A DNA stretch of 64,000 bases from the NCBI GenBank assembly GCA_903839725.1, contig CAIMDG010000003.1, positions 31,829-95,828 of the forward strand, in the 5' to 3' direction. Position 1 is the first letter of the stretch. Every line of letters begins with the position of its first letter. The DNA comes from an uncultured bacterium. Lineage in GTDB: Bacteria > Patescibacteriota > Minisyncoccia > Phycocordibacterales > PALSA-1337. The notes below the pieces were generated by a model that worked only from the letters and a program-made list of their open reading frames with translations, was not told the origin of the DNA and made no database searches. A program made the translations under genes and the position numbers. Positions 3,097-53,429 of this stretch are shown in pieces.

Positions 3097-5688
3097 ATGG
3101 CATTTTTAGATATATTAAAGGGGGGTTCACATACCCAGAATGTAAAGAAATTCCAGCCATTGGTTGGCAAAATTAATGCACTTGAATCAGGTATTAAGGC
3201 TCTTTCTGATATAGAATTAAAGGCAAAAACAGCTGAATTCAAGCAACGACTCGCGAATAAAGAGACTATCAATGATCTTTTACCAGAGGCATTTGCTGTT
3301 GTTCGTGAAGCTTCTAAAAGAACACTAGGACAAAGACATTTTGATGTACAACTTATCGGAGGTATGGTTTTGAATGCTGGAGGTATTGCTGAAATGAGAA
3401 CAGGTGAAGGTAAAACATTGGTTGCAACACTTCCTGCATATTTGAATGCACTTTCTGGTAAAGGTGTTCACGTTGTCACAGTTAACGATTACCTCTCGAG
3501 ACGTGATGCGGTATGGATGGGTCAGATATATGATTTCCTCGGACTTTCAGTTGGTGTAATCGGTAGCGAATCAAGTTTCTTATATGATCCTAAACACAAG
3601 TCTGATGTCACCCCGTCGAAGGACGGGGTCCAGAAGAAAGAACAGGATACATCGTCCGTGACTCTGGATTCCGGCCTCCGCCGGAATGACAAGCAAGAGA
3701 GTGGTTCCGACCCTCTCGACAAAGAACGCGATCAACTTGGTTCATTCAAAGTTGTTCATGAATTCCTACGTCCTGTTCCAAGAAGTGAATCATACAGAGC
3801 TGATATTACCTATGGAACAAATAATGAATTTGGTTTTGATTATCTCCGTGACAACCTTGAATACAGTCCTGATCGTTTGCGTCAACGTGAGCCAAATTAT
3901 GCAATAGTCGACGAAATCGATTCTATTTTGATTGATGAAGCACGTACACCACTTATTATTTCTGCACCAACTCGTAATGCTGAGAATATATACAAACAGT
4001 TTGCTTCTTTGGTTACCGCATTCAAGAAAGATGAGGATTATACAGTTGATGAAAAACACAAATCTATTTCTCTGACTGCAGACGGTATTACCAAGGCTGA
4101 GAAAGAGCTCAATATAGAAAATATCTATACAGACAAAGGCATCAAGTATGTGCACCATTTGGAGACTGCAATCAAAGCTCGTGCCATATATACCAAAGAC
4201 AAAGAATACGTCGTTAAAAATAATGAAATTGTTATTGTTGATGAATTCACCGGACGCCTCCAGCCTGGCCGTCGTTGGTCAGATGGTTTGCACCAAGCAA
4301 TTGAGGCCAAAGAAGGTGTGAATATTCAACAAGAATCACGCACATACGCATCTATTACATTCCAGAACTTTTTTCGTATGTATCCCAAGATGGGAGGTAT
4401 GACTGGTACCGCATCAACGTCAGCTGAAGAGTTTTATAAAGTGTATGGTCTCGAAGTTTATATTGTCCCTACAAATAAATCTGCAGTTCGTATTGATTCC
4501 AATGATCAGATTTTCCGTACGGAAATGGGTAAATTCAAGGCATTGGCGCGTAAGGTCAAAGAATTACACGCAAAAGGTCAACCAGTATTGATTGGTACAG
4601 TTTCTATTGAAAGAAATGAAGTGTTGTCAGCATTTTTGAAAGCTGAGGGCATTCCTCATGAAATTTTGAATGCCAAGAATCATGAACGTGAAGGAGAGAT
4701 TATTGCTCAGGCGGGCAAGAAGGGGGCAGTTACTATTGCTACCAACATGGCAGGACGTGGAGTGGATATCAAACTTGGAGGTAACCCAAACACTCCAGAA
4801 TCTGCTGAAGAGATCAAGAAAGCAGGAGGTTTGTTTGTGATGGGTACTGAACGTCATGAAGCGCGTCGTATCGACAATCAACTTCGTGGTCGTTCGGGTC
4901 GCCAAGGTGATCCAGGCGAGACCCAATTCTTCGTATCACTGGAAGATTCTCTTATGCGTGTATTTGCTTCAGATATGTTGAAGTCTATGATTGGCAAGCT
5001 TGGTATGGCTGAAGACGAAGCAATCGAACATAAACTTATTTCACGTTCTATTGAGAGTGCTCAACAAAAGATCGAAGGATTCAACTTTGATGCCCGTAAG
5101 CATGTCCTTGAATTTGATGACGTTATCAATCATCAACGTTCTTCAGTGTACAAGAATCGCCGTATGCTTCTCCTTGGTTCACTCGAACAAGTTGAAAATT
5201 ATTTACGTGAAATACTCACTGGGGATACTGATGCACTCGCCATGGTTGAAAAGAAAATTGCTGAACATGGTCGTGAAGCTTTCATTTCAGCTGTTCGCAT
5301 TATTTTGCTTCAAGCTATTGATATGTTTTGGGTTGAACACCTCGAGGTTATGGATTATACCCGCTCAAGTGTTAATCTCCGCGCCTACGGTCAACGAGAT
5401 CCATTGGTTGAATACAAGAAAGAAGGCCTTCGTCTATTCAAGGAAATGCAGTTCGCTATGAAGGAGCAAGTTGTTCGCATGATTCCTCATGTGGTACCTA
5501 CCAATAATGGTAAGCCTGTTCAAGCCCCTGAAGAAATGAAAGAAATTCAAACAAATGCACAAGAAATTTCAGGTGGTGATGGTTCAGCAACTCCTACAAA
5601 AAAGAAAGAAGGTGAAGTCGGCAGGAATGATCTCTGTCCTTGTGGAAGCGGTAAAAAGTACAAGAAGTGTCACGGAGCGGGGAAGTAG
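3097..5688 (+). CDS. secA: Preprotein translocase ATPase SecA, with an unusual ~65-aa insertion in NBD1
   Basis: DEAD-like motor motifs (MRTGEGKTLVATLPAYLNAL, ADITYGTNNEFGFDYLRDN, VDEIDSILIDEARTPLIIS) and a C-terminal zinc finger CPCGSGKKYKKCHG. Confidence 0.95.
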   Translation: MAFLDILKGGSHTQNVKKFQPLVGKINALESGIKALSDIELKAKTAEFKQRLANKETINDLLPEAFAVVREASKRTLGQRHFDVQLIGGMVLNAGGIAEMRTGEGKTLVATLPAYLNALSGKGVHVVTVNDYLSRRDAVWMGQIYDFLGLSVGVIGSESSFLYDPKHKSDVTPSKDGVQKKEQDTSSVTLDSGLRRNDKQESGSDPLDKERDQLGSFKVVHEFLRPVPRSESYRADITYGTNNEFGFDYLRDNLEYSPDRLRQREPNYAIVDEIDSILIDEARTPLIISAPTRNAENIYKQFASLVTAFKKDEDYTVDEKHKSISLTADGITKAEKELNIENIYTDKGIKYVHHLETAIKARAIYTKDKEYVVKNNEIVIVDEFTGRLQPGRRWSDGLHQAIEAKEGVNIQQESRTYASITFQNFFRMYPKMGGMTGTASTSAEEFYKVYGLEVYIVPTNKSAVRIDSNDQIFRTEMGKFKALARKVKELHAKGQPVLIGTVSIERNEVLSAFLKAEGIPHEILNAKNHEREGEIIAQAGKKGAVTIATNMAGRGVDIKLGGNPNTPESAEEIKKAGGLFVMGTERHEARRIDNQLRGRSGRQGDPGETQFFVSLEDSLMRVFASDMLKSMIGKLGMAEDEAIEHKLISRSIESAQQKIEGFNFDARKHVLEFDDVINHQRSSVYKNRRMLLLGSLEQVENYLREILTGDTDALAMVEKKIAEHGREAFISAVRIILLQAIDMFWVEHLEVMDYTRSSVNLRAYGQRDPLVEYKKEGLRLFKEMQFAMKEQVVRMIPHVVPTNNGKPVQAPEEMKEIQTNAQEISGGDGSATPTKKKEGEVGRNDLCPCGSGKKYKKCHGAGK
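3565..3790 (+). other. In-frame insertion in secA relative to canonical SecA (between LGLSVGV and YRADITYGTNNEF); its core 3606-3722 is GC-rich and forms two 8-bp GC hairpins
   Basis: ACCCCGTC-GAAG-GACGGGGT (3610-3629) and ATTCCGGC-CTCC-GCCGGAAT (3668-3687). E. coli and B. subtilis SecA have only ~11 aa at this position (recalled from memory). Confidence 0.55.
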
Positions 5689-5689
5689 T

Positions 5690-6013
5690 ATGAAAACACT
5701 CAAATTTTCAACAGAATTAGTACCACTCATCCTTTCAGGAGAAAAGACTTCAACGTGGCGTTTGTTTGATGATAAAGATTTGCGAACTGGAGATATTATA
5801 AGTTTGTTGAATAGTGTGACGAAGAAAGAATTTGCAAAGGCACAGATTCTAGCTATTAAAGAAAAAACACTAGGGCAAATTGGTGATGAAGATTTCGTGG
5901 GGCATGAACGATTTGAGAGTAAAGAAAAAATGTTTGATGTATATAAGTCATATTATGGTAATTCTGTGAATAGGGATACAATTGTTAAGATTGTAGATTT
6001 TAAGCTTAACTAA
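5690..6013 (+). CDS. ASCH (PUA-like) domain protein
   Basis: Small beta-barrel-type sequence (LILSGEKTSTWRL...GDII) typical of the ASCH family. The ATG at 5690 is 1 nt after the secA stop and in-frame with the track ORF that starts at 5555 and overlaps secA. Confidence 0.55.
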   Translation: MKTLKFSTELVPLILSGEKTSTWRLFDDKDLRTGDIISLLNSVTKKEFAKAQILAIKEKTLGQIGDEDFVGHERFESKEKMFDVYKSYYGNSVNRDTIVKIVDFKLN

Positions 6014-6017
6014 ATGT

Positions 6018-6572
6018 ATGGCAGAAAAAATACCTCCACCAATTTCATACGAATCATATATTCAAGAAATACAGCAGATGTGTGCTGAAGATCAGGCGAT
6101 GCGTACTCGAGCTTTAGAAAATGACATGATAATTGAATCAGAAGAAGATAATACTCTTGATGCTCGAAACACAAAGAGAATGAAAGAAATTGTTGCTGAA
6201 ATTGGGTGGCCAACTATTTCAAAGGTGGGAAAAGATATTTCAAATGATGCGTGGTTATTGGTTCAACATGCGGATCATGATCTTGCATTTCAAAAACAGT
6301 GTTTGGAAATGATGAAGCAACAGCCTAAAGTAGATGTTGATAGTAGTAATATTGCATATCTCGAAGATCGTATTCGTGTACATGAAGGCAGGCCTCAATT
6401 ATATGGAACTCAATTTTTCAGTGAAAAGATGGGTGACCCAATGATTCCTAGACCAATTGAAGACCCAAATAATCTGGACGCGAGAAGAAAAGCGGCGGGA
6501 CTTGAGCCTTTTAGTGAGTATGAGAAACATTACAAGGATAAGTATAAAAAATATGATAAACCAAAAGCCTAA
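6018..6572 (+). CDS. Hypothetical protein
   Basis: 184-aa ORF tightly packed between the ASCH and NUDIX genes. I recognise no motif. Confidence 0.45.
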   Translation: MAEKIPPPISYESYIQEIQQMCAEDQAMRTRALENDMIIESEEDNTLDARNTKRMKEIVAEIGWPTISKVGKDISNDAWLLVQHADHDLAFQKQCLEMMKQQPKVDVDSSNIAYLEDRIRVHEGRPQLYGTQFFSEKMGDPMIPRPIEDPNNLDARRKAAGLEPFSEYEKHYKDKYKKYDKPKA

Positions 6573-7050
6573 AAAAATCCTTACTCTCTGTCTGATCGTT
6601 AAAGATACTCGTATCCTCCTCGGTATGAAGAAACGTGGTTTTGGTGAAGGCCGCTGGAATGGTTTCGGTGGGAAACTTGAGCAAGGGGAAACCATCGATG
6701 CTGCCGCACGCAGGGAAGTACAAGAAGAGTCAGGTATTACGGTTACAACCATGAATGAAGTTGGTGTACTCGATTTCGAATTTCAAAGTGATCCGACAAA
6801 GCTTATGGAAGTTCATGTGTTTAAAGTCACTGAATTCAGTGGTGAGGCAATAGAGACCGAAGAAATGAAACCTCAGTGGTTCGAAAAGAATGAGATACCT
6901 TACTCACAGATGTGGTCAGATGATGAACATTGGTTGCCATTATTGCTCGCAGGTAAAAAATTCAAAGGTACTTTTCTGTTCGATAGACCGTCAGATGCAA
7001 CATATTCGGCCAAGATTATCAGTAAGAATTTAGTTGAAGTACAAAAATGA
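6553..7050 (+). CDS. NUDIX hydrolase (MutT-like)
   Basis: Nudix box GKLEQGETIDAAARREVQEESG. The start is chosen at MINQKPKK, which overlaps the stop of the upstream ORF by 20 nt. Confidence 0.8.
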   Translation: MINQKPKKILTLCLIVKDTRILLGMKKRGFGEGRWNGFGGKLEQGETIDAAARREVQEESGITVTTMNEVGVLDFEFQSDPTKLMEVHVFKVTEFSGEAIETEEMKPQWFEKNEIPYSQMWSDDEHWLPLLLAGKKFKGTFLFDRPSDATYSAKIISKNLVEVQK

Positions 7051-7919
7051 TTGAATCATCACCTTCAGCACAAGATCCACAAGCACTTGATATTGAGTCA
7101 CAGGCAAATTTTGAAGGTAATGATAGTGTGCTTTTGATTGAAAGGGTGAATAATCCTGTGATCAAAGCTCAGATAGTTGATCTTTTATACCGTAAAGAAT
7201 TACTTGAAGCTGAACGTATAAAAAAGCTGGTATTCACTCCATTTTCAACGCCAGAACTGAAACATCTAACATGCTTCAAAGACCAACATGGCGTTGTGTA
7301 TACTTCAAGAAATCCAAATTATAATCCAACAAATTACATCCTCACCACTCGGGAGGAAATTGAAAATGAATTAGCTGAATCACTCAAACGGATTACCTCT
7401 GAGACACAGATTAGTTTTACTTCGGAAGAACCGACAGAAAATTTTGTTCCAATCAATTGGACGATTCCTTGGACTTCAGAAAAACCGACACCAAAACAAA
7501 TGAGTATAATTGAAGCTCATGAGAAGGGGCATTCTATACGACCATATGCAGCTTTATGGGATCATTTTTCAAAAGGATTTGACCCATCAAATATTTCATA
7601 CACTCGAAAAGATTTTGAAGTAGATGGTTTGATTAGAAATAATTCAGATCATGATACGAATGTGAGCATCGAGAAGATGAAAGCTGATGTAATAGAGTAT
7701 CTTTTTTCTGGACCAGAAATTGCTGAAAGAATGGCTCAATTGAAAAATTATTTTGGCATGAATGGGTCGGAACAGTTTACAAAAGGGCATCTCGACTATG
7801 CACGCACGCATTATGTCACTGATACTGGAATGGACAATCGTATGACACACTTTTTTCAGGCAATAACACCAGAAACCGAAGCGGCATTTCTTGAACTCAT
7901 CAATTCTTCGGGAATATAG
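7047..7919 (+). CDS. Hypothetical protein with an HExxH (HEKGH) motif; possible zincin-like metallopeptidase
   Basis: 290-aa ORF whose start overlaps the NUDIX stop. Contains EAHEKGHS. Confidence 0.45.
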   Translation: MIESSPSAQDPQALDIESQANFEGNDSVLLIERVNNPVIKAQIVDLLYRKELLEAERIKKLVFTPFSTPELKHLTCFKDQHGVVYTSRNPNYNPTNYILTTREEIENELAESLKRITSETQISFTSEEPTENFVPINWTIPWTSEKPTPKQMSIIEAHEKGHSIRPYAALWDHFSKGFDPSNISYTRKDFEVDGLIRNNSDHDTNVSIEKMKADVIEYLFSGPEIAERMAQLKNYFGMNGSEQFTKGHLDYARTHYVTDTGMDNRMTHFFQAITPETEAAFLELINSSGI

Positions 7920-33877: not shown

Positions 33878-33885
33878 ATATGCTG

Positions 33886-34200
33886 TCGTATAGACAACTG
33901 CGTTCATCTTCGGATGAATGAGGAAAGTCCGAACACCGGCAAAATTTATTTTGCAGAAGGGTAGCGGGTAATTCCCGTCTGGGCAATCCACGAGGTGCGA
34001 ACAGTGACGCCTAAGTCGAAAGGCAAAGGCTCCGTCGCAAGACGGATGAATCTCATGGCAACATGAGGGTGCAACGGCTAAATCCTTACTTCGGTGCAAG
34101 ATCGTGCTCATCGCAAGATGAGAGAATCGCTTGAGGTGTGTGGTAACGCACATCCTAGATAAATGGTTGTCTTCAACAGAATTCGGCTTATGTACGACGA
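33886..34200 (+). ncRNA. rnpB: RNase P RNA (bacterial type A, compact)
   Basis: The universally conserved P4 strands are present: GAGGAAAGTCCG (33920-33931) and ACAGAATTCGGCTTAT (34176-34191). P1 pairing GTCGTAT...ATGTACGAC. Preceded by a promoter and followed by a terminator. The antisense track ORF 33842..34153 is an artefact. Confidence 0.85.
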
Positions 34201-34204
34201 CATG

Positions 34205-34236
34205 TTAACACCCCGCGATGAGCGGGGTGTTTTCTG
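34205..34236 (+). terminator. Rho-independent terminator after rnpB
   Basis: ACACCCCGC-GATGA-GCGGGGTGT followed by TTTCT. Confidence 0.65.
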
Positions 34237-38479: not shown

Positions 38480-38614
38480 AGGTAAGATATGAGAAAATTT
38501 TGGTCTCGATGTGGGTCTGAAGTACGTTAGAATGTAGAAAAATTCTGGTCTCGATTTAGCTTTGGCTACGCCAAAGCTAAATCTCGATCCGAATTTTCTT
38601 AGGAGAGAAAATTC
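38470..38614 (+). promoter_or_regulatory. tRNA leader module copy 1: tandem ~42-nt repeat each ending AAAATT(T/C)TGGTCTCGAT, a 13-bp hairpin (loop TAC), CTCGATCCGAATTTT, then AAATTC immediately 5' of tRNA-Gly
   Basis: Read directly. The same ordered modules recur upstream of tRNA-Thr at 53321-53429. Confidence 0.6.
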
Positions 38615-38685
38615 GCGGGTGTGGTTTAGTGGCAGGACGCGACCTTCCCAAGGTTGAGGCCCGAGTTCGATTCTCGGCACCCGCA
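38615..38685 (+). tRNA. tRNA-Gly (anticodon CCC)
   Basis: Cloverleaf by hand. Acceptor GCGGGTG/CACCCGC, anticodon stem CGACC/GGTTG with loop TTCCCAA, T-arm CCGAG-TTCGATT-CTCGG, discriminator A. CCA is not encoded. Confidence 0.9.
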
Positions 38686-38862
38686 CAATGATCCGTAAGG
38701 ACTGCTAAACGCAGTCCGAGCGGAGCATCATTGCGACGAGGTGCCGAGAATCGAACGCCGGAACGTGCGAGCTCTAGCAAGAGCGAGCCGTGAGGCGGTG
38801 CCCAGACCGAGCCGAACTGGTGAGGCGAGAGTCGCGGGCGATTCTCGGCACCCGCACACAAA
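38686..38862. repeat. GC-rich ~150-bp segment carrying an inverted copy (38730-38746) and a direct 20-nt copy (38843-38862, CGATTCTCGGCACCCGCACA) of the tRNA-Gly T-arm/3' end. It looks like an att site or integration/excision scar, or a tRNA-derived MITE
   Basis: Read directly. GC ~60% against a ~38% background. The antisense track ORFs 38372..38686 and 38577..38873 are artefacts. Confidence 0.5.
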
Positions 38863-38863
38863 A

Positions 38864-38893
38864 AGAAAGGCATAAGCCTTTCTTTTTTGTGCT
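38864..38893. terminator. Bidirectional terminator (perfect 11-bp stem AAAAGAAAGGC-ATAA-GCCTTTCTTTT)
   Basis: Lies between the tRNA region and the convergent nrdH-like gene. Confidence 0.7.
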
Positions 38894-53320: not shown

Positions 53321-53429
53321 TAGGGAAAATCTGGTCTCGCTTTCCCTGGGAGAGGAAATTCTGGTCTCGTCTTCATCATTGCTTACGCAATAATGAAGAC
53401 TCGATCCGAATTTCGCAAAGCCGAAATTC
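53321..53429 (+). promoter_or_regulatory. tRNA leader module copy 2: GGGAAAATCTGGTCTCG, GAGGAAATTCTGGTCTCG, a 14-bp hairpin (loop TTAC), TCGATCCGAATTTC, then GAAATTC immediately 5' of tRNA-Thr
   Basis: Same order and spacing as the module upstream of tRNA-Gly. Confidence 0.6.

Follow-up and report, generated by a model that had tools for sequence, protein, structure and literature searches.

A folded unit behind tRNA-Gly(CCC) in a Patescibacteria genome as a candidate integrase-less cassette docked at a tRNA gene

The segment at positions 38686-38858 of the analyzed DNA (a stretch of 64,000 nucleotides, named the window) follows a tRNA-Gly(CCC) gene directly, and we see about an even chance that it represents a solitary, cargo-less unit from a family of integrase-less insertion cassettes behind Patescibacteria-like tRNA and tmRNA genes. 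Units of this family are gained and lost between close relatives, are joined in mixed arrays, and carry one and the same core behind different tRNA species. The folded unit is probably an attC-like recombination site; its structure and strand bias fit an RNA equally well. Our search of the literature found no description of such elements.

The genome of the window belongs to the Patescibacteria. Relatives of its LepA protein come from Paceibacteria/Nomurabacteria-type MAGs, and a neighboring protein has a homolog annotated as Candidatus Taylorbacteria. The gene order at the locus is LepA, an FtsB-like gene, tRNA-Gly, the terminator, and a glutaredoxin gene, which lies on the minus strand and converges on the tRNA-Gly locus. 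The initial annotation had placed here a tRNA-Gly(CCC), a GC-rich segment after it, an inverted and a direct copy of the tRNA end, and a perfect bidirectional terminator. All of these features are present, with coordinates shifted by 4-10 nt. The parts of the site and of the predicted fold are as follows.

38615-38685/6, plus strand: tRNA-Gly(CCC), called by ARAGORN and by the Rfam tRNA model (62.4 bits)
38668-38687, plus strand: direct repeat copy 1, CGATTCTCGGCACCCGCACA, from C56 of the T-loop to the discriminator base plus 2 nt
38686-38733, plus strand: spacer hairpin, with three stacked helices, 38686-38691/38728-38733, 38692-38696/38720-38724, and 38699-38705/38711-38717 taken from folds
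38737-38755, plus strand: 5' strand of helix P1, made up of the inverted start of the acceptor 3' strand, T-stem, and T-loop (CGA-GGTG-CCGAG-AATCG-AA)
38740-38761: inverted copy of the T-arm, starting 54 nt past the end of tRNA-Gly
38756-38797, plus strand: P2 arm, with the helix CGCC/GGCG at its base, a GGA/GA internal loop that is conserved, and an inner hairpin whose loop is of the C(U)AGCA(A)G type
38800-38839, plus strand: P3 arm, GCCC-A-GACC ... GAGTC-GC-GGGC
38839-38858, plus strand: direct repeat copy 2, CGATTCTCGGCACCCGCACA, matching 38668-38687 at 20/20 positions
38860-38887, both strands: perfect 12-bp hairpin with A and T tracts on either side

The tRNA, which has no encoded CCA, serves as the anchor or target gene of the unit. 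The high GC content after it was borne out, at 0.58-0.67 over 38650-38850 against 0.31-0.43 in the flanks. The direct copy of the tRNA end is as perfect as had been described, though it had been placed at 38843-38862, and two matches of the repeat occurred in 0/100 shuffles. Likewise, the inverted copy exists, though it had been put at 38730-38746 with an offset of about 45 nt, and the perfect hairpin had been assigned to 38864-38893. This hairpin is the original bidirectional terminator of tRNA-Gly (plus strand) and the glutaredoxin gene (minus strand) and belongs to the host, not to the unit. It lies directly 3' of the tRNA at the empty site of relative L221 and is kept in L001 and L220. With its T run inside the stem, it escaped a simple terminator scan. 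The 170-bp unit in the window contains no open reading frame.

Several further observations were made around the tRNA genes of the window. A short hairpin, GATCCGAATTT...AAATTC, occurs at 38590-38615 and 53405-53429, where it abuts the 5' ends of tRNA-Gly and tRNA-Thr; L001 and L221 have it ahead of tRNA-Gly as well. The tRNA genes of this lineage may share it as a conserved leader or as a promoter-proximal element. Two copies of a TGGTCTCGAT-type repeat lie upstream of tRNA-Gly at 38501-38597, together with a 28-nt inverted repeat (38539-38566 / 38570-38597, 86%). A bacterial class A RNase P RNA was identified at 33882-34205 (plus strand) with 107.5 bits against a gathering score of 100, consistent with a divergent RNase P of the Patescibacteria type.

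Folding of 38686-38858 on the tRNA-sense strand gave -92.2 kcal/mol (z = -8.4 against shuffles), and the opposite strand folds less well. The pairing of the inverted with the direct tRNA copy, a relation absent from the initial annotation, closes the structure. Specifically, the inverted copy at 38737-38752 and the second direct copy at 38840-38854 form the 15-bp helix P1, which closes a three-way junction whose arms are P2 and P3. Repeat copy 2 thus doubles as the P1 3' strand, after which come the remainder of the acceptor 3' strand and CA. P3 abuts repeat copy 2 through its own 3' strand, with zero unpaired bases between them. The edge of tRNA identity coincides exactly with this P3/P1 junction in most members of the family, with none left of C56; identity starts at C56 in most members and at T54 in those of core type D. 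The spacer hairpin is not a terminator, because it has no U tract, and it recurs in L107 and L188 with compensatory stem changes (GGACTGC/GCAGTCC vs ACAGGC/GCCTGT). Since no terminator lies between tRNA-Gly and the unit, the two must be transcribed together.

The three-part pattern of T-loop, inverted T-loop, and T-loop was identified at at least 120 loci in a metagenome collection. Among the matches listed, the units follow tRNAs for Gly (CCC, GCC, TCC), Glu, Pro, Leu, Cys, Thr, Ala, His, Lys, Phe, and Arg as well as tmRNA. In their common anatomy, the tRNA from C56 to its 3' end is followed by a spacer hairpin that mostly resembles a terminator and often forms a long perfect palindrome, and then by the inverted T-stem with AATCGAA, the core, and the repeat; a conserved hairpin, P0, is present in many members. 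The cores are 75-100 nt in length and fall into at least five types, A to E, of which the window unit represents type A. Nearly all copies seen stand behind a tRNA or tmRNA, or in arrays or cargo stretches that start at one, and in one orientation; the sole exception is an ectopic second copy in L117 (7815-7992) with no adjacent tRNA. The arrays start at tRNA genes with housekeeping genes on either side. We searched for an upstream signature common to the unit-bearing tRNAs and found none.

The architecture of the core is conserved by compensatory change. RNAalifold analysis of 21 type-A sequences recovered the same three-way junction, with compensatory changes at 16 of 28 pairs. A covariance model (R1) built from these sequences gave 71 matches at E<0.01 in 0.73 Mb of element-bearing loci and 0 in 1.03 Mb of control loci; among the 71 are units of types B and C as well as copies missed by the pattern. 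Across 69 distinct sequences, 94.4% of cells are paired (68.6% in shuffles). The covariation score reaches 0.617, whereas shuffles give 0.17 and slid partners no more than 0.09; these figures are biased towards structure because the alignment was fitted to the model. Compensatory changes were found at all pairs of P2 in this set. Types D and E adopt the same topology as type A, again with covariation.

Comparison with known RNAs and collections placed the units in no described class. Rfam 15, run on the window region (gathering thresholds and E<=10) and on 20 family loci, reported only tRNA, tmRNA, and RNase P and left the units uncovered, so that identities as a known ribozyme or as tmRNA-like, Y-RNA-like, or omega/bridge RNAs are unsupported. 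Searched by BLAST against phage and plasmid collections, the core had chance matches only. Three pattern scans of viral contigs returned 0, 17, and 0 matches; on inspection and under the covariance model, the 17 turned out to be fortuitous and to lie within coding sequence. The three-part pattern itself had no instance in the viral contigs. Two viral contigs share the motif GAATCGAA(C/A)GCCGGA...GACAGCC(C)GGAGAGACGG, which lies on the minus strand in both, at 4481-4522 in L201 and at 420-464 in L204 when positions are counted on the reverse-complemented locus. In L204, a tRNA-like T-arm precedes the motif by about 90 nt. The motif is not recognized by the type-A model.

Relatives of the window genome differ in what they carry between tRNA-Gly and the terminator.

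L218, L219: same species, site identical to that of the window
L221: empty site, the exact tRNA of the window followed directly by the same terminator
L220, L222: one type-D unit, second repeat copy with one substitution
L003: two tandem type-D units at this site
L002, L225: empty site
L001, L224, L228: unrelated inserts bearing open reading frames, 1.85, 0.7, and 0.34 kb

In the occupied relatives, repeat copy 2 and its flank equal the tRNA end and flank of the empty site. The tRNA of L220 and L221 is identical to that of the window, and the flanks of L220/L222 are 98.7% and 93.6% identical to those of L221. The leader upstream of the tRNA also differs between L220 and L221, and allelic replacement by homologous recombination could therefore explain this polymorphism. 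In L220, the entire leader is replaced by a 64-nt GC-rich segment, GCGGGCCTGCCCGCCGAAGCT...AGCGTAG, which is also found upstream of tRNA-Gly in L132.

Other insertions were observed at the same tRNA. L001 represents the closest other species in the genome collection, with a LepA protein 96% identical and flanking DNA about 74-83% identical. Its 1.85-kb insert (5543-7390) fills the gap between tRNA and terminator and holds three open reading frames, one with a weak HIT-domain match. At its start, the tRNA 3' end forms part of a hairpin, after which lies what may be a collapsed remnant, CGAGAATGGCTCGGCA; its far end has no unit and no tRNA repeat. Furthermore, in L225 and L228 (2882-2960 in both) the first 18 nt of tRNA-Gly (GCGAGATTAGTTTAGTGG) are partially duplicated about 25 nt upstream of the gene, which suggests another kind of event at the same tRNA.

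Arrays of the family contain 1-4 units. Types are mixed in L083 (D then C), L174 (D then A), and also L173, and distal units are often truncated or collapsed (L175, L184). About 80 nt past the tmRNA-linked unit of L184 (minus strand) lies a collapsed mini-unit, GAATCGAAAGCGTGACCGATTC, in which the inverted copy is almost directly joined to the repeat and P2 and P3 are deleted. Cores 85-93% identical stand behind different genes, namely Glu in L103 and Gly in L163, Glu in L117 and Leu in L123, and Glu in L099 and tmRNA in L184. The cores of L117 and L123 are 93% identical, with different spacer parts; modules therefore recombine, which counts against a simple cassette model. In L092, a partial tRNA-Pro continues at the T-loop into a tRNA-Gly 3' end, the native Pro 3' end comes after the core, and the inverted copy fits the upstream (carried) repeat better than the downstream one. 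Gly-like repeats are likewise found inside a tRNA-Thr array in L175. Both arrangements are what a T-loop crossover by an element with a foreign 3' end would give. The foreign or chimeric repeats of these two loci and the variation in repeat length disfavor a fixed-length target-site duplication, as by a transposase or a Cas1-like enzyme. Between the tRNA-Pro of L092 (minus strand) and the chimeric Pro/Gly T-arm, an 85-nt spacer with the hairpin CAGAAGTCTGGGAGACTTCTG, similar to type-D P0, precedes a partial tRNA-Pro copy (positions ~41-55). This spacer may represent another type of small insertion linked to tRNA genes, in which the crossover would lie upstream of the T-arm.

The repeats follow the local tRNA closely. 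Among the 123 units listed, identity from C56 to the discriminator base is 18/18 in 86 and 17/18 in 10 more; roughly 27 of the 123 downstream repeats listed are reduced to the T-loop and T-stem, which counts against insertion as a cassette. Elsewhere in the family the T-loop reads TTCGAGT, TTCAAGT, TTCAAAT, or TTCGAAT, and both strands of P1 are altered to fit, so that P1 holds the exact local tRNA sequence and not the product of compensatory drift. In L100 and L103, the inverted copy mismatches both repeats and the tRNA is intact, which contradicts a simple model of a carried left copy. The right edge of the repeat lies 1-3 nt beyond the mature tRNA 3' end in most members. The repeats of L081 and L083 extend through the end of the host terminator, an extent that a cassette leaves unexplained.

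At three loci (L117, L116, and L082), cargo of 2.7-6.1 kb is bounded by units. L117 carries a unit, 6.1 kb with a MazF-like toxin and a DinG-like helicase, and a second copy of that unit, 97.8% identical. In L116, tRNA-His is followed by two units, 3.5 kb encoding DUF305, LigT-like, and MauE-like proteins and two pyrophosphatases, and then an identical unit. In L082, tRNA-Pro is followed by 2.7 kb including a DNA methylase, and then by P0, the inverted copy, the core, and the Pro 3' end. Genes of the cargo are found on both strands. The 6.1-kb cargo of L117 is itself bounded by an inverted repeat of 55 nt (1711-1765 and 7755-7809, 94.5% identical), and by comparison with it the long palindromic spacers of cargo-less units might be what is left after loss of cargo. 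The cargo of L117, L116, and L082 and the L001 insert showed no recombinase domain, and none of the 10 mid-size window open reading frames tested is a recombinase, which counts against the cassette interpretation, as does the lack of any circular or free form of the unit among viral contigs, phages, and plasmids. The initial annotation had proposed that related genomes would reveal a full element with an integrase. No integrase-bearing version was found at this or any related site, nor any long one among the loci fetched.

On these observations we propose how a docked cassette could work. It would enter at the T-loop by site-specific recombination, with a recombinase encoded elsewhere, and would supply a replacement 3' end for the tRNA and, in many members, a terminator. 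The original tRNA 3' end would be pushed downstream and become the 3' strand of P1. The folded unit would then act as the recombination site, like an integron attC or the att of CTX phage, in which P3 and P1 may stack as a quasi-duplex with the exchange point at their junction. In the window, the unit would in addition be transcribed as the 3' trailer of tRNA-Gly, because no terminator precedes it.

Each of several known systems matches the family in part. Integrative elements that target tRNA and tmRNA genes were reportedly classified by Williams (2002, NAR) according to sublocation, including the T-loop, with tyrosine integrases. The units resemble such islands in the direct repeat from the T-loop to the tRNA 3' end, the tRNA kept intact by a replacement 3' end, the use of tmRNA, the arrays of tRNA 3' fragments from successive insertions, and the accessory cargo; flanking direct repeats and both empty and occupied alleles are present. 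The att-type signature of the initial annotation stands as regards the extent of the repeat, from C56 of the T-loop to the tRNA 3' end; an element with the integrase that it implied was not found at this or any related site. In contrast to the islands, units and cargo have neither integrase nor excisionase, units can be only about 150-190 bp, their att-proximal arm is a conserved single-strand structure with an inverted T-arm copy, and one core lineage stands behind many tRNA species.

The comparison with integrons, including integrase-less attC clusters, rests on a candidate site that is conserved in structure and not in sequence, spans about 60-140 nt, folds on a single strand, and has as its closing element an inverted repeat that shares its outer part with the next site. 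The stacking beside a fixed entry site, the optional cargo, and a recombinase outside the cassette are further points in common. The unit sequences ATCGAAC and GTTCGAT each differ from the attC core sites RYYYAAC and GTTRRRY by one mismatch, but the downstream site of types A-C lacks GTT. Unlike in integrons, entry is at a tRNA T-arm instead of an attI beside intI, the common repeat measures 18-20 nt instead of 6-7, the unit is a three-way junction and not a bulged hairpin, the arrays are short (1-4 units), the cargo genes lie on both strands, and IntI was not found. CTX-type phages, which use the host XerCD, offer another parallel: two inverted target copies anneal to a duplex site for a host recombinase acting in trans. 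The target of the units, however, is a tRNA T-arm and not dif, phage genes are missing, and evidence for a single-stranded replicative form, as in CTX-type phages, is absent for the units. The family has a single-strand fold conserved in structure, but the core-site consensus and the hairpin form are lacking, as are attI beside the arrays and intI among the 10 window open reading frames tested, and the resemblance to attC and to CTX-type att is for this reason functional only. We take the family to be a variant of tRNA-targeted integrative elements; the chance that it forms a separate, integron-like system is nevertheless substantial. Only tentatively do we consider that Patescibacteria and some other bacteria possess an undescribed integron-like mode of gene capture, in which cassettes, empty or with defence or accessory genes, would dock at tRNA and tmRNA genes through a folded mimic (about 110 nt) of half a T-arm, be inserted into the T-loop by a chromosomal recombinase or a nucleic-acid-guided enzyme, and repair the tRNA.

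The remaining comparisons are more distant. Like MITEs and CIMEs, the units are small, multicopy, variably present, devoid of open reading frames, and dependent on functions supplied in trans; unlike them, they lack a transposase-type terminal inverted repeat with a short target duplication, are much smaller than CIMEs, and have their place strictly downstream of tRNA genes, with a single orientation. What precedes the inverted copy does not directly repeat what follows the T-stem strand; where the two are related, it is an inverted acceptor. A scaffold joined to about 20 nt of target-identical sequence recalls the scaffold and guide of IS200/IS605 omega RNA, yet the target is present in the occupied site; no TnpA or TnpB was seen, and IS605-family Rfam models gave no match in the window and 20 loci. 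As for a tRNA or a pseudogene, ARAGORN and the Rfam tRNA model call the upstream tRNA only, and the units have no D arm or anticodon arm and hold the core in place of the T-loop. A minus-strand tRNA or pseudogene was rejected, with the T-stem of the inverted copy unpaired and the minus strand folding worse.

We regard as doubtful, though well short of implausible, that the unit is a functional structured RNA gene, either a tRNA 3' trailer or a tRNA-like small RNA, whose closing helix copies the T-arm of its neighbor, and in about 20% of units the acceptor stem as well, and is matured by the usual tRNA 3'-end processing, with spread between tRNA loci as a secondary matter. The strong covariation and the purine-rich junction and loops would suit such a gene, and so would the transcription of the window unit together with its tRNA. 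The tRNA-sense strand is the more stable one in 108/118 cores with RNA parameters and in 105/117 with DNA parameters; the cores are richer in GC than their own loci (0.58 vs 0.46), and an inverted acceptor strand is present in 25/123 members listed, against 14 in the control. At this frequency, a tRNA-like minihelix was rejected as a general rule. A strong terminator-like hairpin separates tRNA and core in most members, which argues against a trailer RNA, as do the P1 helices that match the local tRNA exactly without drift, the decay of the downstream repeats in many copies, the unexplained unit-cargo-unit arrangements, and the lack of an Rfam match. GNRA and UNCG tetraloops are typical of RNA, and GNA triloops are a hallmark of stable DNA minihairpins. 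The hairpin loops of the family are dominated by C(GNA)G triloops and GACG/AGCA loops, with few of the GNRA/UNCG kind, which speaks against an RNA and is a weak hint towards single-stranded DNA. The counts of G-U and A-C in the modelled pairs (40 vs 31) are uninformative.

A related view, which we think unlikely, holds that the unit controls tRNA maturation as a switch acting in cis. The inverted copy would pair either with the T-arm and acceptor 3' strand of the tRNA, causing misfolding, or with the decoy copy, giving release, while the core senses a ligand or protein. The 5' strand of P1 does have two alternative, mutually exclusive partners of similar strength, the tRNA itself (38660-38681; 22 nt, 91% complementary to the inverted T-arm copy) and repeat copy 2 (38834-38852; 19 nt, 89%). 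The minimum-energy fold of the whole window transcript disrupts the tRNA, and throughout the family the match of the inverted copy to the tRNA equals or exceeds that to the downstream copy, without exception. Against the switch stand the terminators between it and the tRNA in most members, together with features that a regulator would not lead one to expect: the stacked arrays, the cargo-bounding units, the ectopic copy in L117, and near-identical strains with and without the unit.

Quite unlikely, in our estimate, is an RNA-mediated insertion, in which a tRNA or pre-tRNA would be cut at the T-loop, its 3' fragment linked to the core RNA, and the product reverse-transcribed and brought into the gene by recombination. 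A reverse transcriptase was not seen, known ribozymes gave no match, and kilobase DNA cargo between units is hard to account for in this way. Such a route would nevertheless place the repeat edges at RNA landmarks, as found on the left in the T-loop and on the right just past the mature end or, in L081 and L083, at the end of the terminator, and snap-back copying would leave spacers of the kind often seen, long perfect palindromes centered on the terminator loop.

Very unlikely is the scar of an integrase-bearing prophage or island with a deleted interior: the direct tRNA 3'-end repeat has the classic T-loop-type att extent and the site is a hot spot for insertions (those of L001, L224, and L228), but no occupied version holds an integrase or phage gene, phage and viral collections give no matches, and the explanation fails because random deletion does not yield the same conserved, covarying architecture of 110 nt in more than 100 loci. 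The initial annotation had offered a deletion remnant, an excised-element scar, or a miniature non-autonomous element. The first two are unsupported, since the interior is a conserved, covarying three-way junction behind many tRNA species, and the third fits best, given the empty relatives, the cargo-carrying versions, and the att-like extent of the repeat. It had also stated that the scar idea would fail if relatives carried exactly this segment as a conserved structured RNA, with no larger element anywhere; the segment is indeed conserved and structured, but some relatives lack the unit.

Patescibacteria make up a large share of bacterial diversity. To our knowledge, classical mobile elements are scarce among them, and their exchange of accessory genes is poorly understood. 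Tools that predict tRNA fragments and islands would misread units of this family as integration scars. If the units are RNA, they would form a large new class of tRNA-linked structured RNA. If the interpretation as docked cassettes is true, a three-way junction that mimics the T-arm would be a new kind of recombination site, and GC-rich "orphan" segments behind the tRNA genes of AT-rich genomes would be accounted for. Should an enzyme acting in trans recognize the folded site together with the near-universal T-loop, a programmable or broad integration tool may become possible. For Patescibacteria themselves, integrase-less cassettes defined by structure and docked at tRNA genes would constitute a new route of gene flux.
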